A stretch of 32,000 nucleotides of DNA from Thermofilum adornatum (GTDB taxonomy: Archaea; Thermoproteota; Thermoprotei; Thermofilales; Thermofilaceae). The position numbers were made by a program, and so were the translations under genes. Location: assembly GCF_000446015.1 (NCBI RefSeq), contig NC_022093.1, forward strand, positions 450,001-482,000, read 5' to 3'. The notes under the pieces were generated by a model, which worked only from the letters and a program-made list of their open reading frames with translations, was not told the DNA's origin and did not search any database. How positions within the stretch are numbered: position 1 is the stretch's first letter; every line of letters begins with the position of its first letter. Below are positions 1,239-16,721 of this stretch, in pieces.

Positions 1239-1784
1239 ATGCCGCACCATACCCATTCTGGGATGCATGAGCACAAAGCCAAGGCCCTGAAAAACCTCAG
1301 GTATGCTTTTGTCACGGTCAGCACGTCGCGCTTCGAGGCAAAGCTTGGAGAAAAAACCATACCCGACGAGTCCATAGAAGTAGCTAAAAAGCTCATAGAG
1401 GCAAACGGCGACACGCTTGTAGAATACGTTTTGATTCCCGACAACCCGCGGCTCTTGCTTGAAGCATTCCTGGAGCTTGCAGTCAGGGAGGATATAGACG
1501 TGATTGTGTTTAGTGGCGGGACGGGGCCCGCGCCCAGCGATGTAACGATCCAGACGCTTGGACAAGTCCTCGAGAAAACCCTGACTGGTTTTGGGGACGT
1601 CTTTAGATATCTTAGCTACAACGAGATAGGGCCTCCAGCCTTCCTAACAAACAGTGTTGCCGGCATCTTTTCTGGCAAGCTCGTGTTCCTCTTGCCTGGC
1701 TCGCCGAACGCAGTGAAACTTGCATTGGAGAAACTTATATTGCCCGAAAGCGGGCATATCCTGTCGCTGGCTAGGGGTAAGTAG
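1239..1784 (+). CDS. moaB: molybdenum cofactor biosynthesis protein B (MogA/MoaB family)
   Basis: The motifs VIVFSGGTGPAPSDVT and LLPGSPNAV are present. The gene is adjacent to moaC with a 2-nt gap. Confidence 0.85.
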   Translation: MPHHTHSGMHEHKAKALKNLRYAFVTVSTSRFEAKLGEKTIPDESIEVAKKLIEANGDTLVEYVLIPDNPRLLLEAFLELAVREDIDVIVFSGGTGPAPSDVTIQTLGQVLEKTLTGFGDVFRYLSYNEIGPPAFLTNSVAGIFSGKLVFLLPGSPNAVKLALEKLILPESGHILSLARGK

Positions 1785-2975: not shown

Positions 2976-4181
2976 CTACGCCTTTAGGAATTCCACCATG
3001 AACTTTCGGAAGAACTCTATGTCTTCTAGATACACGAATTCGCCCTCACTGTGGATGTTTGTCCCTTCACGTATTGTTCCAAAAGCAATCACGTCCATTC
3101 CGTACTCGTCGAAGAAGGAGCCGTCGTTTCCGCCCAGCTCTGCCGCTATCCCGATATTGCCTCCTCTAGCCTTGCTGGCCGCAGTGACGACTTTCTGCAC
3201 GAAGGCCTGGTTTTTCGAGTACCAGCCTTTTTGTTTCCCGAGGATCGTTGTCTCAAGTGTTACTCCATGCTTCATGGCTATAGAGGAAATCGTGCTGAGG
3301 AGCCCGCGTATAGCCTCTTCCAGGTCCTCCTCCGGCAAAAGCCTCATGTCGAAGCCGGCCCACGCCTCTCCCGGTATACGGTTGTGCTTCTCTGGCTCAG
3401 AGGGCGGAAGCTTCACAATATTAATTGTGAACCTCCCCCAGACATACGGCACTGGGCTTCCAGGAGGAGACGGAAACCTAGAAATCTTCGAGCCGCGGAC
3501 AGCCTTGAACTCCATGAGGTCTCCGAGTACCCTTACCAGGTTCTCGGCCGCGTTGCTCGCTGTGTGCGGGTAGCCCGCGTGTCCAGACCTTCCTTTGACC
3601 TTTATCCATCCCTCCACGACGCCGGACGCGCCTACAGAGACGTACTCTGAGCCCGAATCCACTATGACCACGTGATCCCATCTAGCACCACTCTCGAGGA
3701 GCCTCCTGATACCTGTCCCTCCAACCTCCTCGTCGCCCGTAACGATGACTACGGGGTTGTATGCGAGCTCCGCGCCCGACTCTTTTAGATCCACAAGCCC
3801 AGCGATCGACGCGACGATGCCGGACTTGTCGTCTGCCGCGCCCCGGCCGTACAGCTTTCCATCTCTGACTATGGGCGTGTATGGGTCGATCTCTTCGCCG
3901 TCTATCTTCCAGGGCCCCTTTGCCGGCACAACGTCGTAGTGGGAAACAAAGGCTACAGAGGGCTTGCTCTTTGGAGGATTAGGGAGGGTAATTATCAGTG
4001 TTGGTATTTCTCCTCCCTCCAGGTCTATTCTCTCAACCTTTAAACCGTTCGACTCGGCTATGCGGGCAACAGCGTCCGCGGCCTCGCGGTAATGCTTCCT
4101 GACCAACTTGTTCTCTACGTAGTAGACCTCTGAGGGGATTTTTACAAGCTCACTTAGCGCCTGGACAATGTCTAAAGGCAT
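2976..4181 (-). CDS. M20 family metallopeptidase (ArgE/DapE/carboxypeptidase-like)
   Basis: The metal-binding motifs SHYDVVP, GRGAADDKSG and VTGDEEVGG are present. Substrate cannot be assigned. Confidence 0.75.
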   Translation of the reverse strand: MPLDIVQALSELVKIPSEVYYVENKLVRKHYREAADAVARIAESNGLKVERIDLEGGEIPTLIITLPNPPKSKPSVAFVSHYDVVPAKGPWKIDGEEIDPYTPIVRDGKLYGRGAADDKSGIVASIAGLVDLKESGAELAYNPVVIVTGDEEVGGTGIRRLLESGARWDHVVIVDSGSEYVSVGASGVVEGWIKVKGRSGHAGYPHTASNAAENLVRVLGDLMEFKAVRGSKISRFPSPPGSPVPYVWGRFTINIVKLPPSEPEKHNRIPGEAWAGFDMRLLPEEDLEEAIRGLLSTISSIAMKHGVTLETTILGKQKGWYSKNQAFVQKVVTAASKARGGNIGIAAELGGNDGSFFDEYGMDVIAFGTIREGTNIHSEGEFVYLEDIEFFRKFMVEFLKA

Positions 4182-5800: not shown

Positions 5801-6063
5801 GTGGAAAACGTTTCTACAGAGATTTCCAGGGGAACCATTTCCTCCCAACCCGTATCACAATGGAGAAATCTCTGTTTTTCACTTTCGTATATTTTTAATT
5901 TTGGAGCGAGGGGTTTTTCCTGGTTTTCCGAAACGCTTGTGTGGTCGTTATGGATGTACAGCTTTGTGTGGTGTAGGCTTATTGTCGGGTAGCGGGTACG
6001 TGGAGGAACGTAGAGGTGCATTAATTCTTTCTGAGCCGCATCTATGCAAAGCTCTATGTGTGG

Positions 6064-8328
6064 TTAGATGTAGCCCTGAAGGTAGGCGTAGTAGATTTGT
6101 CCGGCGGATATGGAGTTGTCTCCGGGAGGCAGCTTTTTGGGGAGAATGGTGTTTTCCTTGCCAAAGATGGCTCTTATGCCCTTAACTATTGGGGTGTTGA
6201 CTGCGGCGCCTCCGGACACGAGTATTTTCTTGGCGCCTTTTTCGCGGGCAATTTCTGCTAGTCGTTTTCCGAGGAGGAACTGGACTGTGTAGGCCAGGTC
6301 ACGTGGGCTGTGTCTGAGCTCGCCTTGTAGCAGTTTCAGGAGGAAATCGTATGTCTTGACTGTGTCTCCCTCGGCATCTAGGAGGCTGTCTGATATGATG
6401 TTTCCCCCATAGCTGTATTCTTCTAGTGTTATTGCTGGCTCCCCCTCGTAGTTTCTTTTCCAGGATACGCCTAGCGCTGTTGAGACTGCGTCGAGGAAGC
6501 GACCCGCACTGCTTGACATTGGCGAGCCGCTTGTCTGCCTGGCGGCGAGCCGGGCCTCGCTTAGCCCTCCTGGGAGGTATCTTTGTAGCCCGTTGGACTG
6601 GAATATTTTTAGTGCTTCTTCTTCTCCAAGTGCCCGTGTTAGGGTTCCAATGAGTATCCTTGCTGGGTAGACTGTAGCCATGTCTCCTCCGGGCATTGGT
6701 AGGTAGTCTAGGTGTCCGAGCCTTTCGTATCCCTGGCCGACGTATAGTACTTCTCCTCCCCATATCTGGCCGTCGTCTCCGTACCCGACGCCGTCTATTG
6801 CGATGCCGTACTCCTCTGTGGAGGCTGTTTCAAGCATGACCGCCGAGACGTGGGCCACGTGGTGCTGGACTTCGACCAGGTTGTTGGAGCATTTTGACGC
6901 TATTTCTTCGGCTACGAGCCTCGAGGGGTAGGCTGGGTGTTTGTCTGTCACGACTATGGCGTCGCACTCTTTTATGCCGTATGTCTTGATGAGGAAGCTC
7001 AAGGCTTCCCTCAGGAACTCGAGGGTCTCCAGGTTTTCGAGGTCTCCTATGTGCTGTGTGGGGATAACGTATTTTTCTACGGCTACGCTGCCTGTATTCA
7101 TTAGGAATGCGCCAGTAGCTATGGCGGGGCTCTTGATGCTTCTTGGAAGAATGATCCAGCGAGGCGCGTATCCACGGCTTCTCCTTATCATTACTGGCTC
7201 GCCGTCTGTAAATCTGACTACGCTGTCGTCTGCCCTGTTGACTATCCTCCTGTTATGCATCAGGAAATAGTCTGCCACCTTTCCGAGCTTTCTTAGCGCC
7301 TCGTCGTTGTCCTTGATTATGGGTTCTCCGCTCTCGTTTCCGCTGGTCATGACTAGGAACTTGTCTCTTGTATCCATGAGGAGGAGATAGTGTAGGGCAG
7401 TGTAGGGAAGCATGACCCCGACGGTCTTTAGGTTTGGGGCTACAAGCTCGGAAACCGCCCCGGGCTTTCTTGGGAGTATCACGATGGGCCTGGCTGGGCT
7501 TGTCAGGAGTTCTCGTGCACTGTCGTCTACTTCCGCTATTTTCTCGGCGACTTCTAGGCTTAGGGCCATCAATGCAAAGGGCTTTGTCGGGCGCTTTTTG
7601 TGTCTGCGTAGCTTCTCTAGTACGCTGTCTTCTGTGGCTAGGCAGGCCAGGTGGAAGCCGCCTATCCCCTTTACAGCTACGATGTAGCCCTCGTTTATTA
7701 GCCTTGCCGCTTCACGTATCGGGTCTTCGGCTTCTAGCTGTTTTCCAGTGGGGTCGACTAGGAAAACCTTGGGGCCGCACTTGGGGCACGATATTCCCTG
7801 TATGTGGAACCTACGCAGATTGTTGGGGTCTCTGTATTCTTTTTGGCACTCTTCGCAGAGTGGGAAGTCTCTCATCGAGGTGTTTTCTCGGTCGTAGGGG
7901 ATCTTCTCGATCACTGTGAATCTGGGTCCACACCATGCACAGCTATGGAATGGGTACCTGTACCACCTGGAGGACGGGTCGAGGACTTCTCTCAAGCATT
8001 CTTCACATATTCCGAAGTCTGGCGGGATCATTGAAAGCTTCGTGATTGTTGTGCCGCTTTTGAGTATGATGAAGTCCTTGTAGCCTTTTGGGGCTTCGGC
8101 TTGAATGTGGATCTCTTCTATCTCTGCCGAGCGGGGCGTCTTGTTCTTCAGGTCGTATAGGAAGTCTTCTATCTGTTTAGGGTCTCCCTCTACCCATATC
8201 TCTACCTCGCTCCCGCCCAGGTTTAGGACATAGCCCTTTAGGCCGTGTCTTACAGCTAGCCTGTAGACGTGGGGCCGGAAACCCACGCCTTGGACAATCC
8301 CGGCAACCCTTACACGTAAAGCCTGCAT
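6064..8328 (-). CDS. hypF: [NiFe]-hydrogenase maturation carbamoyltransferase HypF
   Basis: An acylphosphatase domain (VRVAGIVQGVGFRPHVY) is present. Two zinc-finger pairs follow (CEECLREV..CAWCGPRF and CEECQKEY..CPKCGPK), and the C-terminal half is YrdC-like plus Kae1-like. The ATG at 8328 (MQALRVRV) is preferred over the track start at 8424. Confidence 0.9.
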   Translation of the reverse strand: MQALRVRVAGIVQGVGFRPHVYRLAVRHGLKGYVLNLGGSEVEIWVEGDPKQIEDFLYDLKNKTPRSAEIEEIHIQAEAPKGYKDFIILKSGTTITKLSMIPPDFGICEECLREVLDPSSRWYRYPFHSCAWCGPRFTVIEKIPYDRENTSMRDFPLCEECQKEYRDPNNLRRFHIQGISCPKCGPKVFLVDPTGKQLEAEDPIREAARLINEGYIVAVKGIGGFHLACLATEDSVLEKLRRHKKRPTKPFALMALSLEVAEKIAEVDDSARELLTSPARPIVILPRKPGAVSELVAPNLKTVGVMLPYTALHYLLLMDTRDKFLVMTSGNESGEPIIKDNDEALRKLGKVADYFLMHNRRIVNRADDSVVRFTDGEPVMIRRSRGYAPRWIILPRSIKSPAIATGAFLMNTGSVAVEKYVIPTQHIGDLENLETLEFLREALSFLIKTYGIKECDAIVVTDKHPAYPSRLVAEEIASKCSNNLVEVQHHVAHVSAVMLETASTEEYGIAIDGVGYGDDGQIWGGEVLYVGQGYERLGHLDYLPMPGGDMATVYPARILIGTLTRALGEEEALKIFQSNGLQRYLPGGLSEARLAARQTSGSPMSSSAGRFLDAVSTALGVSWKRNYEGEPAITLEEYSYGGNIISDSLLDAEGDTVKTYDFLLKLLQGELRHSPRDLAYTVQFLLGKRLAEIAREKGAKKILVSGGAAVNTPIVKGIRAIFGKENTILPKKLPPGDNSISAGQIYYAYLQGYI

Positions 8329-8432: not shown

Positions 8433-9677
8433 ATGGAAAAATTCGACTATACATATGCATATAACATAGCGCTGGCCCTTTCTAGACAGCCCAGGTTTAC
8501 GGGTACAGAGGGCGAGAGGCAGGCTAGGGAGCTCATAGTGAGGGAACTGGAAAGCCTCGGCTATAACCCGTCCCTCGAGAAATTTTCTGTCAAGACATAC
8601 GACGTTGTAGAGTCGGAGCTAGAGATAGTCAAGCCCCATAACAAGAAGATAGAGTGCAGCGTGTTAGGCTTCAGCGGTGAAACGCCCATAGAGGGAGTAG
8701 AGGGAGACATATTATACATCGAGAACGCGGACAACATTCTTCTCCCAGAAGCTACAGGCTGGATTGGCCTCGCGTCGCAGAGGCCCTCCAGGGAGTACTG
8801 GAAAAAGCTAATAGGAAAAGCAAGTGGGCTGGTCATCGTTGAGGGTTCTCCCTACAGGGAGCTCAGCCGGGTAGCGATACCATACGAGTGGAGGGAAAAA
8901 ATGGGCTCTCTCCCCAGCGTCTATGTCAGGTATAGAGACGCATATGAACTGCTCTCGGCCGAGAGGGCAAGACTAAAAGTTGTACAGACCTATAGGGACA
9001 CTGAGACATACAATATTTTTGCCACAATAGAGGGATCCAAGTACCCAGACGAGGTCATATATGTTACGGCCCACTACGACAGTGTACAGGGGGTCCCCGG
9101 CGCCACCGACAACGCTGGCGGAACCGCCATGGTCTTGGCCCTTGCAAAGGCTCTCTCTGCCTCCAGGCCCAAGAGAACCGTCCGGTTTGCACTCTTCGGC
9201 GCAGAAGAGCTTGGACTACGCGGCTCACTCTTCCACGTAAACTCGCTTAGCGACGACGAGAAGAAAAAGATAAAGACAGTAGTCAACCTCGACGTGCACG
9301 GAGGAATCTTTGGCTCGTCAGCCGCAATCATAAGTGGCGCAAAGAGCCTCAGGTACTTTGTAGAGGCGCTGGCCAAACGTGTAGGCGTGAATCTGAGCAT
9401 ATCGGAAGACGTGATGAGTAGCGACGGTTCGTCCTTCGTTAAACACGGTATACCAGCTGTAAACCTCTATAGGGCTAGTGGTTCGGGCGCGGACATACAC
9501 ACGGTGAAAGACAGCTCGGAGCACCTACACCCAATCGCCTTTAAGACGATCGGGTACTTTACGTTGCTCCTCCTCGAGGAAATCCTCAACGCCGAGGAGA
9601 TACCCTTCGAAAGAGAGATCCCAGAAGACATAAAGAAGAAAGTAGAGGAGTACTTTTCAAGAAGACAGCCCATCTAG
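8433..9677 (+). CDS. M28 family aminopeptidase (with inserted PA-like domain)
   Basis: The zinc-ligand motifs TAHYDSVQGVPGATDNAGG and FGAEELGLRGS are present. Confidence 0.8.
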   Translation: MEKFDYTYAYNIALALSRQPRFTGTEGERQARELIVRELESLGYNPSLEKFSVKTYDVVESELEIVKPHNKKIECSVLGFSGETPIEGVEGDILYIENADNILLPEATGWIGLASQRPSREYWKKLIGKASGLVIVEGSPYRELSRVAIPYEWREKMGSLPSVYVRYRDAYELLSAERARLKVVQTYRDTETYNIFATIEGSKYPDEVIYVTAHYDSVQGVPGATDNAGGTAMVLALAKALSASRPKRTVRFALFGAEELGLRGSLFHVNSLSDDEKKKIKTVVNLDVHGGIFGSSAAIISGAKSLRYFVEALAKRVGVNLSISEDVMSSDGSSFVKHGIPAVNLYRASGSGADIHTVKDSSEHLHPIAFKTIGYFTLLLLEEILNAEEIPFEREIPEDIKKKVEEYFSRRQPI

Positions 9678-11120
9678 CTTCCTGGAGAGCGCCCTGTAGC
9701 CCCCTTTAAAGCTCCAGGCTTTGTAGCCGAGCTTCCTCAACGTGTAGGCCGCTTCACGGCTGAGCCCGCCCTCGTCGCATATAAAGATGTATTTCTTGTT
9801 TGGATCCAGCTTATCCAAGGCTACTGGGAGCTCTGCGAAGTCAATGTTTATGCTTCCGGGCACGTGGCTTTCTCGGTACTTCTCTGGGGGACGCAGATCA
9901 ATAACTATGCTGTCTGGGTCGATGGTGCTTATCTCCACCTCATCCAGTGACTCCGCCTGGATTCCCAGGGTTCTGAGTTCTATCTCCCTTAGACTCGAAA
10001 CAACACCCTCGAAAACTGTCTTATCGATTTTATCTTCTTCTCTTAGAACCTCCTCAAGCCTGCTTCTCGTGCGCGGATGCACCGAATATACTCCGCAAAC
10101 CTCTTTGACGCGTGCGCTGGCCTCGTATGTGCCTATTTCTCTCGCCCTAGCGATTATTTCCTCCTTGTCCATCCCTATGAGCGGTCTATACACTGGCAAC
10201 GATACGGCCGTCGAGGACGAGTAGAGGTTTTCCAGGGTTTGGGACGAGACTTGCCCAAGGCTCTCGCCGGTGACTATGCCCAGGGCGTTTATCTTCCGGG
10301 CTACGTGCTCAGCCGTCCTATACATGTACCTTTTCAGGACGACGCCCAAGAGGCCTGGATCCACTTTTTTCCTAAGTTCCTTTACCAGTGGCCTAAAGTC
10401 CGCGACATACAGCTTGGGAGAGTAGCCGTAGCCCCAGTTATCTACAAGCATTTTTACAACCGATGCTACTAGTCTCTCTGTTAGCTCGCCAGCCATGTTA
10501 CAGAATACAAAGTGGACCTCGGCCCCCCTTTTAAGCATGTACCATGCCGCGACTATGGAGTCGAAGCCCCCCGAGACTAGGGCAACAACTCTCCCCTCCA
10601 CGCCCACTGGGAGCCCTCCGTAAGCCTTCACCACGTCTTGGAAGAGATAAGCCTTGTTCCCCCTGACCTCGATATACACGGTGAACTCTGGATTCTCTAG
10701 GTCTACGCCCCTCGAGCATGGGTAGAGCCGTCCACCAACCTCCCTGGCTATGTCCATAGAGGTAAAGCTATGCGTCCCCGTTCTCCTCGCCTTAACAGCA
10801 AAAGTCTTTCCCTTCACCTTGTCACAGAACAGTTGATAAGCTACTTCAACTATTTCTCCTAGGGTTTCGAACTCGAACTCCACGGCGCTTGAAATAGACG
10901 TGATCCCGAAGACCCTGCGTAGCACCTTTATCGCCTCCTGGGTAGAATATACGTATATTCGTCCATACTCTCTCTTGACCTCGCCCTGCAGGCCGCTAAG
11001 CCTCAAGGCCTCCTTGATGTTTTCGATAAGCTTCTTCTCGAACCTGTCCCTAGACTTTTTCCCCTTTATAGTTACCTCTCCAAGCCTGACTATCAGCACG
11101 TCGCGCAGTTTGTTCTCCAT
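9657..11120 (-). CDS. thiI: tRNA 4-thiouridine synthase / sulfurtransferase ThiI with C-terminal rhodanese domain
   Basis: The N-terminus is THUMP-type, the PP-loop SGGFDS is present, and a C-terminal rhodanese has its active Cys in FICDEGGLS. The track start at 11126 is GTG, and an ATG at 11120 gives MENKL. Confidence 0.85.
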   Translation of the reverse strand: MENKLRDVLIVRLGEVTIKGKKSRDRFEKKLIENIKEALRLSGLQGEVKREYGRIYVYSTQEAIKVLRRVFGITSISSAVEFEFETLGEIVEVAYQLFCDKVKGKTFAVKARRTGTHSFTSMDIAREVGGRLYPCSRGVDLENPEFTVYIEVRGNKAYLFQDVVKAYGGLPVGVEGRVVALVSGGFDSIVAAWYMLKRGAEVHFVFCNMAGELTERLVASVVKMLVDNWGYGYSPKLYVADFRPLVKELRKKVDPGLLGVVLKRYMYRTAEHVARKINALGIVTGESLGQVSSQTLENLYSSSTAVSLPVYRPLIGMDKEEIIARAREIGTYEASARVKEVCGVYSVHPRTRSRLEEVLREEDKIDKTVFEGVVSSLREIELRTLGIQAESLDEVEISTIDPDSIVIDLRPPEKYRESHVPGSINIDFAELPVALDKLDPNKKYIFICDEGGLSREAAYTLRKLGYKAWSFKGGYRALSRKLDGLSS

Positions 11121-11149
11121 AAGCACTCATCTTAAAATAAACACTTGGC

Positions 11150-11172: not shown

Positions 11173-11328
11173 ATGATTATGAGTGAAATTGTCCTCGGGA
11201 CGATGGACTTTATTCTCCTAGTGATAGGAACCGTCGCATTCATAGCGCTTCTCATTGTCTTCGCCATAGAGTATCACTACTGGAGACTGAGGAGACAAAT
11301 GAAGAAAATCATAGTGAAGGCCGGGTAG
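11173..11328 (+). CDS. small (51 aa) single-pass membrane protein, hypothetical
   Basis: This ORF is below the track size cutoff and runs from ATG to TAG. It encodes MIMSEIVLGTMDFILLVIGTVAFIALLIVFAIEYHYWRLRRQMKKIIVKAG. One hydrophobic helix is followed by a basic tail, and a TATA-like element lies upstream. Confidence 0.4.
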   Translation: MIMSEIVLGTMDFILLVIGTVAFIALLIVFAIEYHYWRLRRQMKKIIVKAG

Positions 11329-11437: not shown

Positions 11438-11701
11438 CTAGGAAACAAGAACTTTTCCTCCTACAGCTTGCCCAGGCAGATGACGCTCAAAATAGGCTAT
11501 GGCCCTGCCCTTCCTCCCGTGCATCTTCACAATCCTGCCGACAAACTTCTCGCCAGTGACAGGATGTATCCAGACAACCTTCCTCCCTATAACTTTGTGG
11601 GCGTCCTTATATGTTACACCCTTCAGCTCGACTAATACCTGCCTAGGATAGTACCTTTTCTGTCCGCGCCTGAAAGAGACAATGTACCCTTCCAAGCGCA
11701 T
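11438..11701 (-). CDS. rpl35ae: 50S ribosomal protein L35Ae (eL33)
   Basis: The protein is 87-88 aa. GRKVVWIHPVTGEKFVGRIVKMHGRKGRAIAYFERHLPGQAVGGKV fits the L35Ae pattern. The track start at 11704 is GTG, and the next codon (11701) is ATG. Confidence 0.9.
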   Translation of the reverse strand: MRLEGYIVSFRRGQKRYYPRQVLVELKGVTYKDAHKVIGRKVVWIHPVTGEKFVGRIVKMHGRKGRAIAYFERHLPGQAVGGKVLVS

Positions 11702-11757
11702 CACCCAGCAAATTATAAAGATAAAGCGTTTTTAACTTTTTCCCCAAAACGGGGAGA

Positions 11758-12003
11758 CTAGTGTGTCTTCGAGCAGATATCTGTACACTTGTCTGCAAAC
11801 TCGTCACATATATGGTCGCAGGCGTTCTTGTTGTCGTTACATATCTCTTCGCACTGGTCGCTGTATGCCCCTGGAAACTCGGAGCACTCCTCCATGCACT
11901 CCGACGCGTTCTCAGAACACTTTGCATGGCAATCGTCTACAAAGTCCATGCACTGTGAGATGCATTCATCCATGATTTTCTTCGCGTCTCGCCTGTCTGA
12001 CAT
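11758..12003 (-). CDS. acidic cysteine-rich small protein (81 aa, 12 Cys as six Cx3C motifs), function unknown
   Basis: The ORF has an ATG start. The strict periodic Cys pattern (see finding) argues for real coding. It is co-directional with valS, the ASCH gene and rpl35ae. Confidence 0.6.
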   Translation of the reverse strand: MSDRRDAKKIMDECISQCMDFVDDCHAKCSENASECMEECSEFPGAYSDQCEEICNDNKNACDHICDEFADKCTDICSKTH

Positions 12004-12031
12004 GTATATACCACGTTGCTGAATTATTATT

Positions 12032-12628
12032 TTAACTTTTGCCCTCGTTGTTAGCGTTAATCTTCTGGAGCAACCCCTTCTCCTCTAGCAAGCGCGCGGC
12101 CCGCCTCAACACGTCCCTGACTATGAAGCGCTGGTCAAGCCCTCCCAGAGCATACGCGGCCCGACGTATAGAGCCCGTCTTCGCGACGAGTTCTAGGACG
12201 TTTTTCTCGTAGTCGTCGAGCTCCAGGGACTGCAGGGCCTTTACTGCAACTTCTTGGAAAGACACGCCGTACGGCCAAGAAATGTCCGCGTCTCGGACTG
12301 CGTCCTTGTAGACATGGATCCATTTAAAAACGATGATGCATAGGCGCGTGTCCTCGTTTACCCTTGGATAATGCTTCTTGAGCTGTATGCGTAGCTCCTG
12401 CAGACTCGTGAAGCCGTCAAGCAACGCCTCGTCGACAGTGATGTCGCGCAACTTTTTCTTGTAGACGGCCACTATCTCGACTTCCCCTATAACCCTCCCG
12501 CCGCAGTGCACAAGTGCCTTGTCGCCTGGCTTCAGGTTGGGACAGCGTACACGTATAGTTGCCCGCTTCTCGCCTGAAACAAGCTTGTCTAGGTAGTTCC
12601 TGGAAAAGAGGAGATGTTTTTCACGCAT
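12032..12628 (-). CDS. ASCH (PUA-like) domain protein with a C-terminal helical, possibly wHTH, domain
   Basis: The N-terminus LDKLVSGEKRATIRVRCPNLKPGDKALV...ITVDEALLDGFTSLQEL matches the ASCH pattern. The gene lies 2 nt downstream of valS. Confidence 0.6.
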   Translation of the reverse strand: MREKHLLFSRNYLDKLVSGEKRATIRVRCPNLKPGDKALVHCGGRVIGEVEIVAVYKKKLRDITVDEALLDGFTSLQELRIQLKKHYPRVNEDTRLCIIVFKWIHVYKDAVRDADISWPYGVSFQEVAVKALQSLELDDYEKNVLELVAKTGSIRRAAYALGGLDQRFIVRDVLRRAARLLEEKGLLQKINANNEGKS

Positions 12629-12630
12629 GT

Positions 12631-15057
12631 CTACGGCTGTAGGGAGATAGTTATTTCTGGGTATTCTGGAACAGCCCTGTCTCCTCTACCACTGCTTGTC
12701 ACTTCTACTTTTTGTGCCCTGAGGGTACCCGCGATGTCCCCGGTAGCCTTCCTCAGCTCCTCGAGGTGCATAGTAGTATAGATGGTGAGCTTGGAGATTT
12801 CTTTGCTCAGCGGTATCTTTGCGTCGTGTTTTGCCCGTCTCCCCTCCGCAATTATGGCTACAACGATTTCTCCTGTCTTCGCCTTTTCCGCGTCGTATTC
12901 TACCTGCTCTGGCCAGGGCGAGGTAGTTATGCTTTCCCAGTTTTCGGAGCCCTTGAGAACTTCCTGGTAAATCTCCTCTGAGACATGTGGGGCAAAAACC
13001 GAGAGCATCTGTATAGTCCTCAGCAACACTAGCCTCAACACGTATTTTGCTACACGGTCGCCCTGAGACAGCCTATACTTTATGATCTCTAAGTAGTGGT
13101 CACAGAGCTTGTGCCAGGCAAAGTCTACCAGCCTCTGTGAAGCCTCCTGGAACTGGTAGTTCTCAAGCGAAGACGTGACCTGCCTTATAGTCTCGGACAG
13201 CTCTCGAAGTATCCAGTGGTCTACATGTGATAGCTCCTCCATGCTTGGCGGTGGAACCTCCTCTATAAATGAGCTCGCGAGCCGGGCAGCGTTCCATATC
13301 TTCACGAGGAACCTGTGCGCATAGTCTACGCCCTCCCACGAGAACCTCACGTCCTGTCCAGTGGAGGCCGCCATCGCGACCCAGAGCCTGAAACTGTCTG
13401 CGCCGTACTTTTCGAGGACCTCTGTGACAGCTACATAGTTTCCGTAGCTCTTGTGCATCATCCTGCCGTCTGTGCCGCGGACCATGCCGTTGATCAGTGC
13501 GGTCTTGAACTGGGGCTTGCCGAAGAGGGCTATACCCCTGAGCAGTAAATAGTAGTCCCAGGTTCTAATTATGTCGTAGCCGTTTGGCTGGAGGTCTGCG
13601 GGGAAAAGCCTCTCGTCAAAGTTGTCTGGCCAGCCAGCGTGGACGGCGGCAGTTATGCTTGAGTCCATCCAGGTATCCATGACGTCTCTTTCTGGGACAA
13701 TGTTTTTAGACCCACACTTTGGACACTTCTCGAAGGGTGGACTGTCGAAGCGTGGGTCGTGTGGGAGCTTCTCTGGTGGCACGACGAGCTCTGCTCCGCA
13801 GTCCTTGCAGTAGTAGACGGGTATTGGCGTAGCGAACAGCCTCTGCCTGGAGATTACCCAGTCCCAGTCTAGGTTGAGAACCCAGTTCTCGAGCCTCTTG
13901 TACATGTAGGGTGGAACCCAGTTTATCCTCTTTGCTTCTTCGAGAACCTTCTCGTTAAGAGCCGTAGACTTCACGAACCACTGTTTCTTTGGAAGTATCT
14001 CGACGGGCGTATGGCAACGCCAACAAGTGCCAACAGTGGACTGTATGTTTTCAGTTTTGACAAGTAAACCCTTTTCTCTTAGTATCTCTGCTATTTTTTT
14101 CCTCGCTTCCTCAATTGGCAGTCCCTGCAGGGGGCCAGTGTTCCCGTTCATTCTGCCGTTGTCAGTGATAGAGATTATCAAGGGCAGGTTGTGTTTCTTC
14201 TGCCATTTTACGTCTGTCTTGTCGCCGTAGGTACAGATCATCACGGCGCCTGTACCGAATGTCTTGTCTACGTCTTCGTCGAAGATTATGGGAACCTTAC
14301 GTTCATAGATGGGGACGACTGCATGTTTGCCTTGGAGGCTCCTATACCTCTCGTCAGTCGGGTTTACTGCTACAGCTACACAGGAAGCTAGAAGCTCGGG
14401 CCTAGTCGTGGCTATTACGACGTCCTCGCCCGTCTCGGCGACCTTGAACTTTATGTAGTATAGGGGACGAGATTTCTCCACGTATTCTACTTCTGCCTCG
14501 GCGATGGCCGTTTCGCATCTTGGGCACCAGATGACAGGGTGCTCCCCGCGGTAAATCAGCCCCTTCTTGTACATCTCTACGAAGCTTAGCTGTGTCCTAC
14601 GCCAGTAGTCAGGATTCATCGTCATGTACTCGGTTGTCCAGTCTATGCTCAGCCCAAGCCTTTTAAGGGCGGCACGCATGTCGCCTATCCACTTGAGCGT
14701 GTATTCCTTGCACAGCCTGAGAAACTCCAGGGGGTCTACCTCGCTACGCCTCTTGCCGATTGCACGTTCAACCCTGACCTCTGTGGGAAGCCCGTGGCAG
14801 TCCCACCCCTGCGGGAAGAAGACATTGTAGTCCCTCATCCTCTTGTATCTAGCAACGAAGTCGATGTATGAAAAGTTGAGGGCATTGCCCACGTGGAGGT
14901 CTCCGCTTGGATAGGGTGGCGGCGTGTCAATCGAGAATGTTGGCCTAGTCCTGTCTTCGCGTCTGAACCGGTATAGGCCTTTTTCTTCCCATGTTTTCTG
15001 CCATTTTTCTTCGACAAGTTTGAAGTCGTATACCTTTGGTAGCTTGAATTCAGCCAT
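12631..15057 (-). CDS. valS: valine--tRNA ligase
   Basis: Class I signatures are present: PPPYPSGDLHVGNA (HIGH-like), WDCHGLPTE and MHKS (KMSKS-like). The 808-aa length fits archaeal ValRS rather than LeuRS or IleRS. Confidence 0.8.
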   Translation of the reverse strand: MAEFKLPKVYDFKLVEEKWQKTWEEKGLYRFRREDRTRPTFSIDTPPPYPSGDLHVGNALNFSYIDFVARYKRMRDYNVFFPQGWDCHGLPTEVRVERAIGKRRSEVDPLEFLRLCKEYTLKWIGDMRAALKRLGLSIDWTTEYMTMNPDYWRRTQLSFVEMYKKGLIYRGEHPVIWCPRCETAIAEAEVEYVEKSRPLYYIKFKVAETGEDVVIATTRPELLASCVAVAVNPTDERYRSLQGKHAVVPIYERKVPIIFDEDVDKTFGTGAVMICTYGDKTDVKWQKKHNLPLIISITDNGRMNGNTGPLQGLPIEEARKKIAEILREKGLLVKTENIQSTVGTCWRCHTPVEILPKKQWFVKSTALNEKVLEEAKRINWVPPYMYKRLENWVLNLDWDWVISRQRLFATPIPVYYCKDCGAELVVPPEKLPHDPRFDSPPFEKCPKCGSKNIVPERDVMDTWMDSSITAAVHAGWPDNFDERLFPADLQPNGYDIIRTWDYYLLLRGIALFGKPQFKTALINGMVRGTDGRMMHKSYGNYVAVTEVLEKYGADSFRLWVAMAASTGQDVRFSWEGVDYAHRFLVKIWNAARLASSFIEEVPPPSMEELSHVDHWILRELSETIRQVTSSLENYQFQEASQRLVDFAWHKLCDHYLEIIKYRLSQGDRVAKYVLRLVLLRTIQMLSVFAPHVSEEIYQEVLKGSENWESITTSPWPEQVEYDAEKAKTGEIVVAIIAEGRRAKHDAKIPLSKEISKLTIYTTMHLEELRKATGDIAGTLRAQKVEVTSSGRGDRAVPEYPEITISLQP

Positions 15058-15176: not shown

Positions 15177-15956
15177 CTAATGGTGATGGTGGTGATGGTG
15201 ATGCTCGTGTACGTCTTCGACAGTTTCTTCTATTTCTTCTGAGCCTAGACCTGCCAGTTGCTCCTGTAGCTTTTGTGGAAGCTCGACACCATAGGCTTGG
15301 AGAATCTGTGCAACAAAGTAGGGGTCTGGAGCGGCGCCTTCAAATTCAAGCTTGTCTTCTCCATCTATTTGTATAACGTTTTTGGGCACCGCGTAGACCC
15401 CGTACTTGTCGGCTAGATCCGAGAACTCTAGGGCCTCTATCATGTCTCCATAGATATTTTTGTTCACCATTGCGAACCTGTGCGCCGCCCTGACGGCTAG
15501 TGGGCAGTATGGACACGTGGGCGTTACGAATATCATTATGCGTGTGGGCCTTGTGACGTATTTGAGCAACGCTTCCTTTATCTCTGGCGATACGTTGACT
15601 CGCCCAGTAGAGGCGTCTACAATGTCCTCTATGAATGCCCCGAACTCGTAGCCGGCGGGTATCCCAAAGTAGCGTATGTTCCACTCGTCGACGCCGTGGA
15701 TTAGAAGCGCTGGGAACATGTCGATGTTGTACTTCCTTGTTTCTGGGTCGGACTTTACATGCTTGATTACTGTCACCTTGTTGTTTGACGTCTGCTGAAC
15801 CAGGTCGAGGATCTGCTGTGTGTCTTCACAGTAGACGCATTCGGCATCTGGGTCTAGGAACCAGTGTATCTTTACGGGTGACTCTAGCCCTGCAAAAGTC
15901 TTCTTTAATTCTTCTACTAGTTCCTCATCATATTCTACTGGCATAGTGTAGCCCAC
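15177..15956 (-). CDS. protein disulfide oxidoreductase (two thioredoxin-fold units, CVYC and CPYC) with a C-terminal His-rich tail
   Basis: The architecture is PfPDO-like, with CxxC motifs in both halves. The protein ends ...EETVEDVHEHHHHHHHH. The track start is GTG, and an ATG four codons downstream (15944) is an alternative. Confidence 0.8.
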   Translation of the reverse strand: MGYTMPVEYDEELVEELKKTFAGLESPVKIHWFLDPDAECVYCEDTQQILDLVQQTSNNKVTVIKHVKSDPETRKYNIDMFPALLIHGVDEWNIRYFGIPAGYEFGAFIEDIVDASTGRVNVSPEIKEALLKYVTRPTRIMIFVTPTCPYCPLAVRAAHRFAMVNKNIYGDMIEALEFSDLADKYGVYAVPKNVIQIDGEDKLEFEGAAPDPYFVAQILQAYGVELPQKLQEQLAGLGSEEIEETVEDVHEHHHHHHHH

Positions 15957-16001: not shown

Positions 16002-16721
16002 CTATTCAATGACTGTATAGCTTTCGCCTTGTCCAACAAATATCTTTGAAGGCTTCTTGATGGCAAATATGCCTGTCTCTAGAACTCCCGGCAGGGACTT
16101 GAGTTTTTCCTCTAGTATCCTCATATCACCGCTCCACTTGAGTGTCGCGTCTAGCAGGAAACCGCCGTTATCAGTGATAGCGGGGCCAAGCTTTTTCTCC
16201 GAGAAAACTCGTAGCGAAGACTCGGCGTTAAAGGTTTCCCGGAGAGCCTTCACCACTTGGCTGTATGACATTGGGTGGACCTCTATTGGAACAGTTAGGG
16301 GCCCGTCAAGCTTTGCCCGTAGCTTTGTGTGGTCAACAATGATTACGTATTCCCGTGCATAGTAGTTGACAAGCTTTTCTCTTAGGAGGCACCCTCCCCC
16401 TCCCTTGATGAGGGACTTGTCTGGGAAAACAGTGTCTGCGCCGTCTATGCTTAGGTCCGGCGTAAAGCTGTTCAGTGAGACTTCTATTAGGCCCAGCGTG
16501 GCGGCTAGGATGCTTGTATCGTATGATGACGAGACAATGTAGACTTTGAGGCCTTCTCTTTTGACCTTCTCGGCGAGAAGCTTCATGAAGATTTTGACTG
16601 TTGACCCGCTGCCCAGCCCGAGAACCATTCCGTCTTTCACGAGTTGTAGGGCTGCGAGCGCGGCGGAGGTTTTTTCTTGTGTTAATTGGTCGTGTTGTTT
16701 CTTTTGCTCCATTTGAGGCAC
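16002..16721 (-). CDS. rpiA: ribose-5-phosphate isomerase A
   Basis: The motifs LGLGSGSTV, DGADTV and IKGGGGCLLREK are present. Confidence 0.9.
   Translation of the reverse strand: MPQMEQKKQHDQLTQEKTSAALAALQLVKDGMVLGLGSGSTVKIFMKLLAEKVKREGLKVYIVSSSYDTSILAATLGLIEVSLNSFTPDLSIDGADTVFPDKSLIKGGGGCLLREKLVNYYAREYVIIVDHTKLRAKLDGPLTVPIEVHPMSYSQVVKALRETFNAESSLRVFSEKKLGPAITDNGGFLLDATLKWSGDMRILEEKLKSLPGVLETGIFAIKKPSKIFVGQGESYTVIE

Follow-up and report, generated by a model that had tools for sequence, protein, structure and literature searches.

A twelve-cysteine acidic protein of Thermofilum, a candidate disulfide-stapled helical hairpin

The stretch of DNA analyzed here (32,000 nucleotides of Thermofilum adornatum, positions 450,001 to 482,000 of contig NC_022093.1, hereafter the window) encodes a small acidic protein with twelve cysteines, referred to below as Cys12. 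As judged by sequence searches, Cys12 represents an uncharacterised small family that we encountered in Thermofilum only and that neither Pfam nor NCBIfam contains, and it is a new multi-rung version of the known Cx3C helical-hairpin theme. The interpretation that we tentatively favor, giving it slightly less than an even chance, is that of a hairpin of two helices in the cytoplasm, held together by as many as six interhelical disulfides. The disulfides themselves, a partnership with a protein disulfide oxidoreductase (PDO) and the cellular role of Cys12 are what we infer from the cysteine register, its conservation and the modeled geometry presented below.

The Gene and Its Cysteine Pattern

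The minus strand of positions 11758-12003 carries an open reading frame (ORF) of 81 amino acids (aa), and the plus-strand reading of the same interval is interrupted by stops. The translation matches exactly that of the first-pass annotation, an earlier reading of the same DNA from its letters alone. The strand of the ORF had been left unstated there; the gene lies on the minus strand.

11758-12003, minus strand: coding sequence of the acidic 81-aa protein with 12 Cys; stop codon TAG at 11758-11760

Cys residues occupy positions 14, 18, 25, 29, 36, 40, 51, 55, 62, 66, 73, and 77, with the spacing 4,7,4,7,4,11,4,7,4,7,4, and each of the six cross-pairs sums to 91. They make up 12 of the 81 residues (15%), while Asp and Glu together account for 25.9% and three His are present. 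The computed isoelectric point (pI) is 4.27 and the computed net charge approximately -13. The N-terminus is not hydrophobic and a signal peptide is absent; peptides within the protein include IMDECISQCMDFVDDCHAK, NACDHICDEFADK, and CTDICSK. The translation, the twelve Cys positions, the sum of 91, the acidic share and the His content reported in the first-pass annotation could all be reproduced from the minus-strand ORF.

The Cys pattern is not due to chance. The spacing fits 406 of the 7.1e13 placements of 12 Cys in 81 positions (p approximately 6e-12), and six Cx3C pairs with any spacing appeared in 4 of 2,000,000 random placements. The exact mirror symmetry, which had been put forward as what an antiparallel hairpin would give, holds as far as the sums go, but as evidence for a hairpin it reduces to arithmetic: the half-pattern is itself palindromic, so that any two 4,7,4,7,4 halves are mirror-symmetric whatever the fold. 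The constant sum of 91 is no independent evidence for a hairpin; what is informative is the strict period of 11 residues, or three helical turns, together with the split into three and three Cx3C pairs and the conserved loop.

Conservation and Distribution in Thermofilum

Gene callers report the identical 81-aa protein on 19 public Thermofilum contigs, including CP007493.1 (which we take to be Thermofilum strain 1505), and the hot-spring metagenome-assembled genomes (MAGs) among these contigs share the gene order of the window. Relatives of the neighboring ASCH protein are also named Thermofilum in their source records. The Cys12 gene is identical in eight strains or MAGs whose identity over 10 kb is 98.3-99.8%. 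At 97.1% identity are two contigs, L139 (Ga0080004_1098634) and L140 (Ga0272449_1003546), both with the gene at 3001-3246; they carry 7 and 5 synonymous changes, respectively, along with one and two amino acid changes, which are confined to R4K and H81C. The latter substitution arises through three adjacent nucleotide changes (ACA CAC to ACG TGC).

The Cys register in related archaea, whose conservation had been proposed as a check on the gene, is retained in full in two more distant orthologues. In T. pendens Hrk5 (CP000505.1) an ORF of 84-86 aa directly upstream of rpl35ae shares 55% identity over 71 residues with the window protein and keeps 12 of 12 Cys in an unchanged register. Identity between the two genes at the three codon positions is 70/75/32%, the proportion of nonsynonymous differences (pN) is 0.29 with synonymous sites saturated, and 7 of the 12 Cys codons have changed from TGC to TGT or vice versa with the residue kept. 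The second orthologue, on the metagenomic contig L264, lies uncalled between ASCH and rpl35ae (73% identity, 12 of 12 Cys). Invariant in all orthologues are the acidic residues D12, E13, D20, D23, E31, E38, E39, E42, E52, D57, and D71, the core residues I15, F21, I54, I65, and I76, and the loop residues G45, A46, S48, and Q50. Most of the invariant non-Cys residues are acidic and lie on the surface. None of the three His is conserved (H26 is replaced by S, H64 by E or Q, and H81 by C, G, or R), and neither are N32 and N58.

That three plus-strand ORFs of 65-77 aa overlap the Cys12 ORF, that gene callers miss it on some contigs (L012 and L264), and that the protein is absent from a collection of 15 billion proteins could suggest a non-functional ORF, i.e., a chance ORF or the shadow of an opposite-strand signal. 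This reading, whose probability we put close to nil, is effectively refuted by a codon-position conservation that suits the minus-strand frame alone and none of the antisense frames, by the retention of all Cys at 55% identity, by synonymous differences that far exceed amino acid changes among close variants, and by the very low chance of the Cys pattern. The plus-strand antisense ORFs were ruled out as real genes by the same codon-position evidence. Because the Cys register, the codon-position pattern and the synonymous excess all hold, we regard the Cys12 ORF, on comparative grounds, as a genuine gene under purifying selection.

In one Thermofilum lineage (L013, L014, and L018), ASCH and rpl35ae are separated at the syntenic site by a 417-bp spacer that retains no trace of the Cys12 gene. 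The ASCH protein of this lineage is 70% identical to that of the window vs. 62% for the T. pendens ASCH and, by sequence, the lineage stands nearer than T. pendens to the window species. With three or four lineages compared, the Cys12 gene is probably ancestral in the genus and dispensable. The spacer (4577-4993 in L013, also in L014 and L018) contains neither an ORF exceeding 40 aa nor any similarity to the Cys gene, and Rfam gave no match to it. In T. pendens, an insertion of 2 kb parts the Cys12 gene from ASCH and the upstream genes, with the adjacency to rpl35ae kept; this adjacency is the only one conserved across loci carrying the Cys12 gene. The inserted segment (L015 4690-6450), which may be mobile or lineage-specific, contains an opposite-strand acidic ORF of 76-77 aa and an ORF of 485-488 aa without a recorded Pfam domain.

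Predicted Fold and the Candidate Disulfide Ladder

AlphaFold2, run on the single sequence, predicts a helix-loop-helix with a mean predicted local distance difference test (pLDDT) of 89, in agreement with the antiparallel helical hairpin suggested in the first-pass annotation. The predicted elements are as follows:

11884-11997, minus strand: predicted helix 1, residues 3-40 (AlphaFold2), carrying C14, C18, C25, C29, C36, and C40
11869-11883, minus strand: loop SEFPG, residues 41-45 (AlphaFold2 and alignment)
11767-11868, minus strand: predicted helix 2, residues 46-79 (AlphaFold2), carrying C51, C55, C62, C66, C73, and C77

In a hendecad frame the Cys of both helices fill positions a and e, and the neighboring core positions are hydrophobic, with aromatic or aliphatic residues. 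In helix 1 they comprise I10/F21/N32/F43 at position h and M11/V22/A33 at position i, and in helix 2 the invariant I54/I65/I76 at position d and Y47/N58/F69 at position h. A Foldseek search of the predicted structure against the PDB returned generic hairpins only (E > 1).

The geometry was explored with a rigid-body model of two ideal dyad-related helices, for which separation, crossing angle and phase were searched. All six pairs of the a-e' register (sum 91) reached disulfide geometry simultaneously and without clash, with C-alpha distances of 5.1-5.9 Å and C-beta distances of 3.7-4.3 Å, at an axis separation of about 9 Å and with the helices crossing at 5-10 degrees. On this model a six-rung interhelical disulfide ladder is geometrically possible, as had been proposed.

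According to the mechanism that we favor, Cys12 would fold in the cytoplasm as one long antiparallel helix-loop-helix, each helix carrying three Cx3C pairs placed 11 residues (three turns) apart. Because this 11-residue period equals three helical turns, all twelve Cys would fall at the helix-helix interface, where the opposed Cx3C pairs would join as C40-C51, C36-C55, C29-C62, C25-C66, C18-C73, and C14-C77. Small Tim proteins and alpha-hairpinins have one such twin-Cx3C staple; Cys12 would repeat it three times along its hendecads, giving a rigid, hyperthermostable rod that is approximately 5 nm in length and whose conserved surface is strongly acidic. A PDO-type oxidoreductase, encoded three genes upstream, would make and possibly reverse the ladder. 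The conserved acidic surface, as read from the alignment, points to binding of a basic partner or of cations, and with twelve redox-active thiols a role as a thiol/disulfide buffer is possible.

The Cys count is even and split 6+6 between the helices, which we counted in favor of disulfides. Crenarchaea are reported to be universally disulfide-rich, with PDO as a marker, and published analyses of genomes link PDO to a crenarchaeal cytoplasm that is rich in disulfides (PMC3177088). In the Cx3C...Cx3C hairpins of alpha-hairpinins the C1-C4 and C2-C3 disulfides are established (PMC7191063). If the ladder is real, it would be the densest regular interhelical disulfide array that we know of in a natural cytoplasmic protein, involving 12 of 81 residues with rungs 4 or 7 residues apart. 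A protein of this kind would also be a clean, small system in which to study how cytoplasmic disulfides are formed and maintained through PDO in crenarchaea, as well as a hyperstable helical scaffold ready for protein engineering.

Family Searches

Sequence and profile searches of Pfam, NCBIfam and the PDB with the Cys12 family gave nothing significant, and a confident match to a characterised family, which the first-pass annotation had named as a refutation, was not found in these three resources. None of the profiles that had been singled out for comparison (Csp/DUF326, CHCH, and twin-Cx3C families) reached the Pfam membership threshold, and the zf-Tim10_DDP and CHCH families were absent from the Pfam matches at E <= 10. 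PDB sequence matches to the NF-YB and HapC histone folds (E 0.07-0.5) and Pfam matches to PAH_ZNF598, DUF7674, and BAR, which were weak, were rejected as compositional.

Searches of larger collections gave little. Word-indexed HMMER searches with Cys12 returned nothing; the 15-billion-protein collection behind them lacks the query itself as well as both T. pendens start variants tried, and these searches are therefore blind to the family and constitute a weak negative. A phmmer search against 1.84 billion representatives returned a single match, P0001 (E 1.5e-6); it did not return the query either and is likewise a weak negative. No relative was found with the ASCH neighbor as a probe in genome contigs, a two-sequence alignment scan of metagenomes recovered near-identical copies only, and tblastn against plasmids and phages gave no matches. 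Two distant ASCH homologues (P0007 and P0008) showed neither synteny nor a Cys ORF. Cys12 thus exposes a blind spot, being absent from large protein collections and skipped by some gene callers.

The copper storage proteins deserved particular attention. Csp1 and Csp3 (DUF326; PDB 5FIG, 5ARM, and 5FJD) resemble Cys12 in having many helix Cys that face the core, and Csp3 is also cytosolic. However, Csp proteins are single chains of about 108-133 residues that fold into four-helix bundles, with Cys at heptad positions a/d, whereas Cys12 has 81 residues and two predicted helices. Csp proteins bind many Cu(I) ions via thiolates of the core and are free of disulfides. BsCsp3 carries Cys at C8, C12, C15, C19, C22, and C26, and the assertion that the Cys12 pattern is not that of DUF326/Csp is borne out by this 4,3,4,3 spacing and by a profile comparison at 4-5% (hhalign probabilities of 5.2% and 3.7% for the family alignment against a BsCsp3 sequence identical to PDB 5FIG). 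The window protein had no match to DUF326 (PF03860) even at E <= 10, and neither did the H81C variant; the L264 protein reached 7.8 bits (E 4.8). Csp structures were not returned by the PDB sequence or profile searches. Membership in Csp/DUF326 was rejected on the sub-threshold scores, the hhalign result, the spacing of 4,7 instead of 4,3 and the two predicted helices instead of four. The principle of Csp proteins, in which helix faces carry the Cys and CXXXC serves as a Cu(I) site, may be taken as a valid analogy.

CHCH/twin-Cx9C proteins such as Cox17 and Mia40 are disulfide-bridged antiparallel hairpins, some of which bind Cu(I). They differ from Cys12 in their Cx9C rather than Cx3C motifs, in having two disulfides only and in being eukaryotic. 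Membership of Cys12 in this group was discarded given its Cx3C/Cx6C spacing and the lack of a Pfam match.

Structural Analogues

The mitochondrial small Tim proteins (Tim9/Tim10; zf-Tim10_DDP) and the plant alpha-hairpinins are among the systems closest to Cys12 in design, as both are helix-loop-helix proteins with a Cx3C motif on each helix, and their opposed Cys form two interhelical disulfides, an outer (C1-C4) and an inner one (C2-C3). The central unit of Cys12, C36x3C40-x10-C51x3C55, has this twin-Cx3C form, and its predicted fold is of a similar kind. Unlike either group, Cys12 nests three twin-Cx3C units with an 11-residue period, and there is no detectable homology. Moreover, Cys12 is archaeal, cytoplasmic and acidic (pI 4.3), whereas alpha-hairpinins are short, typically basic, secreted defence peptides of plants that are cut from precursors, and small Tim proteins are chaperones of the intermembrane space. 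The Cx3C motifs of small Tim proteins are separated by 11-16 residues, and the central Cx3C-x10-Cx3C of Cys12 is one residue short of this range. The alpha-hairpinin motif is defined as XnC1X3C2XnC3X3C4Xn, where X is a non-Cys residue, so that it holds four Cys only (PMC7191063). Strictly, it is matched by the innermost C36/C40/C51/C55 alone, with the spacing nested three times. Membership in the plant alpha-hairpinins was rejected, the protein being archaeal, with a pI of 4.27 and no hydrophobic N-terminus.

A degenerate DNA pattern for eight Cys was scanned in genome and viral contigs and gave at least 120 matches in each, mostly TGT/TGC simple repeats; the matches listed did not extend to Thermofilum genomes. 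Among them were at least five small bacterial proteins with Cx3C-x6-Cx3C-x10-Cx3C-x6-Cx3C, from Pseudomonas (L029), a myxobacterial MAG (L074), gammaproteobacterial MAGs and others:

L029, 3845-4186, minus strand: bacterial analogue
L035, 2271-2534, plus strand: bacterial analogue
L074, approximately 1500-1783, plus strand: bacterial analogue
L112, 1104-1352, minus strand: bacterial analogue
L119, approximately 6000-6270, plus strand: bacterial analogue

These proteins share the central eight-Cys register with Cys12 and would have four rungs rather than six. P0001, a eukaryote-like protein of 289 aa, contains four C-x3-C-x10-YCEEIC repeats with acidic or His-rich linkers; it is comparable to Cys12 only in the central Cx3C-x10-Cx3C unit, where 27 residues show about 44% identity, and has a weak DUF7833 match. 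By eye, the five bacterial proteins and P0001 have signal-peptide-like or lipobox-like N-termini, and the sequence between their Cys is hydrophilic and helix-like. None of them was assigned to a Pfam or NCBIfam family, and none showed detectable homology to the Thermofilum family. They are analogues, possibly convergent, and the bacterial proteins may represent an undescribed class of exported four-rung Cx3C hairpins. Since the Cx3C register recurs in proteins that would be bound for disulfide-forming compartments, the disulfide reading of Cys12 is favored by analogy.

Gene Neighborhood and the His-Tailed PDO

The co-directional order valS, ASCH protein, Cys12 gene and rpl35ae given in the first-pass annotation agrees with the Pfam assignments, all on the minus strand, and the organism does encode a PDO, as had been stated there. 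The annotated neighbors are the following:

16002-16721, minus strand: rpiA (Pfam)
15177-15956, minus strand: PDO-like protein disulfide oxidoreductase with two thioredoxin folds (Pfam Thioredoxin_3, 1.5e-21)
12631-15057, minus strand: valS (Pfam)
12032-12628, minus strand: ASCH protein (Pfam)
11438-11704, minus strand: rpl35ae (Pfam)
9657-11126, minus strand: ThiI with a rhodanese domain, two genes downstream of the Cys12 gene (Pfam)

The PDO of the window has two CxxC motifs, CVYC at residue 40 and CPYC at residue 148, and a natural C-terminal tail of eight His that follows an acidic stretch. It was compared with the PDO of relatives:

L015, 682-1449: PDO
L013, 656-1375: PDO
L018, 656-1375: PDO

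The C-terminus reads ...VEDVHEHHHHHHHH in the window and ...EELHHHHHHHH in T. pendens; strain 1505 (L005) has a shorter ...HEHHH, and the PDO of the lineage without the Cys12 gene lacks the His tail (...GTSQEL). The tail is thus present in both lineages that have the Cys12 gene and a readable PDO, and absent in one lineage without the gene. PDO is a possible partner of Cys12, and the co-occurrence may mean that the two proteins work together with a metal involved, a lead drawn from three lineages. Pfam annotation of the neighborhood showed no metal-homeostasis genes near the Cys12 gene.

Metal Binding and Redox Switching as Alternatives

Several observations weigh against a closed ladder. In the rigid-body model, the a-a' register (sum 87) is equally possible geometrically and would give three disulfides only, with six free thiols. 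Thermofilum is a strict anaerobe of sulfidic springs, and the redox state of the protein in vivo is uncertain. The H81C variants possess a 13th Cys and with it a further Cx3C (C77-x3-C81), and an unpaired 13th Cys suits a ligand better than a closed ladder. The T. pendens protein scored 18.0 bits against DUF326 (E 0.0028, residues 13-26), with a gathering threshold of 20.4. Finally, hhalign of the bacterial analogues against the Thermofilum family gave a probability of 12.5%, i.e., no detectable homology, and they serve as an analogy only, drawn from a small sample.

A reduced hairpin, alone or as a dimeric four-helix bundle, might instead bind or store metal through the thiolates of its Cx3C motifs, which we regard as the main rival reading, less likely than the ladder. 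It could form three stacked tetrathiolate layers (C14/C18/C73/C77, C25/C29/C62/C66, and C36/C40/C51/C55) binding Zn(II), Fe, or Cd and set apart by Phe and Asn layers. Alternatively, Cu(I) or another soft metal might occupy Csp-like bis-thiolate Cx3C sites. In either case the purpose would be the buffering or detoxification of metals in metal-rich hot springs. CXXXC has a precedent as a Cu(I) site in Csp3, where each of eight Cu(I) sites is formed by both thiolates of the intrahelical motif (PMC5171941). With 15% Cys, small size, occurrence in one lineage and dispensability, Cys12 resembles accessory metal-stress genes. Reduced twin-Cx3C small Tim proteins bind Zn(II), which also speaks for metal binding, as does the alternation of His and Cys at position 81 through three adjacent nucleotide changes. 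The hydrophobic arcs span h, a, e, i, b in helix 1 and d, h, a, e in helix 2; they exceed what contact between two helices requires and would fit dimerisation, and the His8 tail of the neighboring PDO was seen, among three lineages, only in those with the Cys12 gene.

The weak DUF326 similarity at residues 13-26 of the T. pendens and L264 proteins may be counted on the same side, yet Csp membership itself fails on score, hhalign and spacing. Furthermore, the bulky Phe, Tyr, and Ile in the Cys stripe would fill the cavity that Csp proteins keep accessible to metal, the His residues and N32/N58 are not conserved, the neighborhood is devoid of metal-homeostasis genes, and all analogues found with the same register look exported by eye. 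If Cys12 did bind metal, it would amount to a minimal equivalent, built of two helices, of the Csp copper stores and, to our knowledge, the first such protein in archaea. With either chemistry, Cys12 defines a new small family confined to a single genus.

A redox-switchable hybrid, holding a metal such as Zn or free thiols when reduced and a disulfide ladder when oxidised, appears quite improbable to us. Together with PDO, it would act as a 12-electron thiol/disulfide buffer, an oxidative-stress sensor, or a sulfane-sulfur carrier in a sulfur-respiring cell. Each end state is plausible individually and small Tim proteins do show a Zn/disulfide duality. A PDO is encoded nearby with a His tail that co-occurs with the Cys12 gene, and ThiI with its rhodanese domain lies two genes downstream. 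However, the hybrid is purely inferential, the co-occurrence is based on three lineages, and only the adjacency to rpl35ae is conserved, the upstream genes being separated by the 2-kb insertion in T. pendens.

More speculatively still, and with a slimmer chance than the hybrid, Cys12 and the His-tailed PDO could form a previously unknown archaeal cytoplasmic redox/metal module, with Cys12 as a "thiol battery". In it, the three reduced tetrathiolate layers would hold Zn, Cu, or another soft metal, oxidation by PDO would zip up the six-disulfide ladder, and the His8 tail of PDO would take up the released metal. Such a module would buffer redox equivalents and metal in a hyperthermophile without glutathione.

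Flanking Signals and Other Observations

Two putative signals flank the Cys12 gene:

12024-12035, minus strand: A/T-rich, TATA-like box TTAAAATAATAA, 21-32 nucleotides (nt) upstream of the ATG and overlapping the ASCH stop codon (by eye)
11742-11754, minus strand: short inverted repeat with T-run CCCCGTTTTGGGG, beginning 4 nt past the stop codon

With low confidence, TTAAAATAATAA may be the gene's own promoter, giving a leaderless or short-leader mRNA. In T. pendens a TATA-like AATAATATATAG is found, also by eye, at a similar distance, though the gene is detached from ASCH, so that such boxes occur 20-35 nt 5' of the start in both species. The element CCCCGTTTTGGGG may, again with low confidence, be a termination signal ahead of the rpl35ae promoter; it was not flagged by a scan for bacterial-type terminators. 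Rfam and tRNA scans of the whole window gave no matches. The published proteome study of T. adornatum lists regulated genes only, by locus tag (PMC6965361).

Between rpl35ae and thiI, the plus strand of the window contains at 11173-11328 an ORF of 51 aa with one hydrophobic segment resembling a membrane span (MIMSEIVLGTMDFILLVIGTVAFIALLIVFAIEYHYWRLRRQMKK...). At the equivalent site, a gene of 49-55 aa is called in related loci, including T. pendens and L264.

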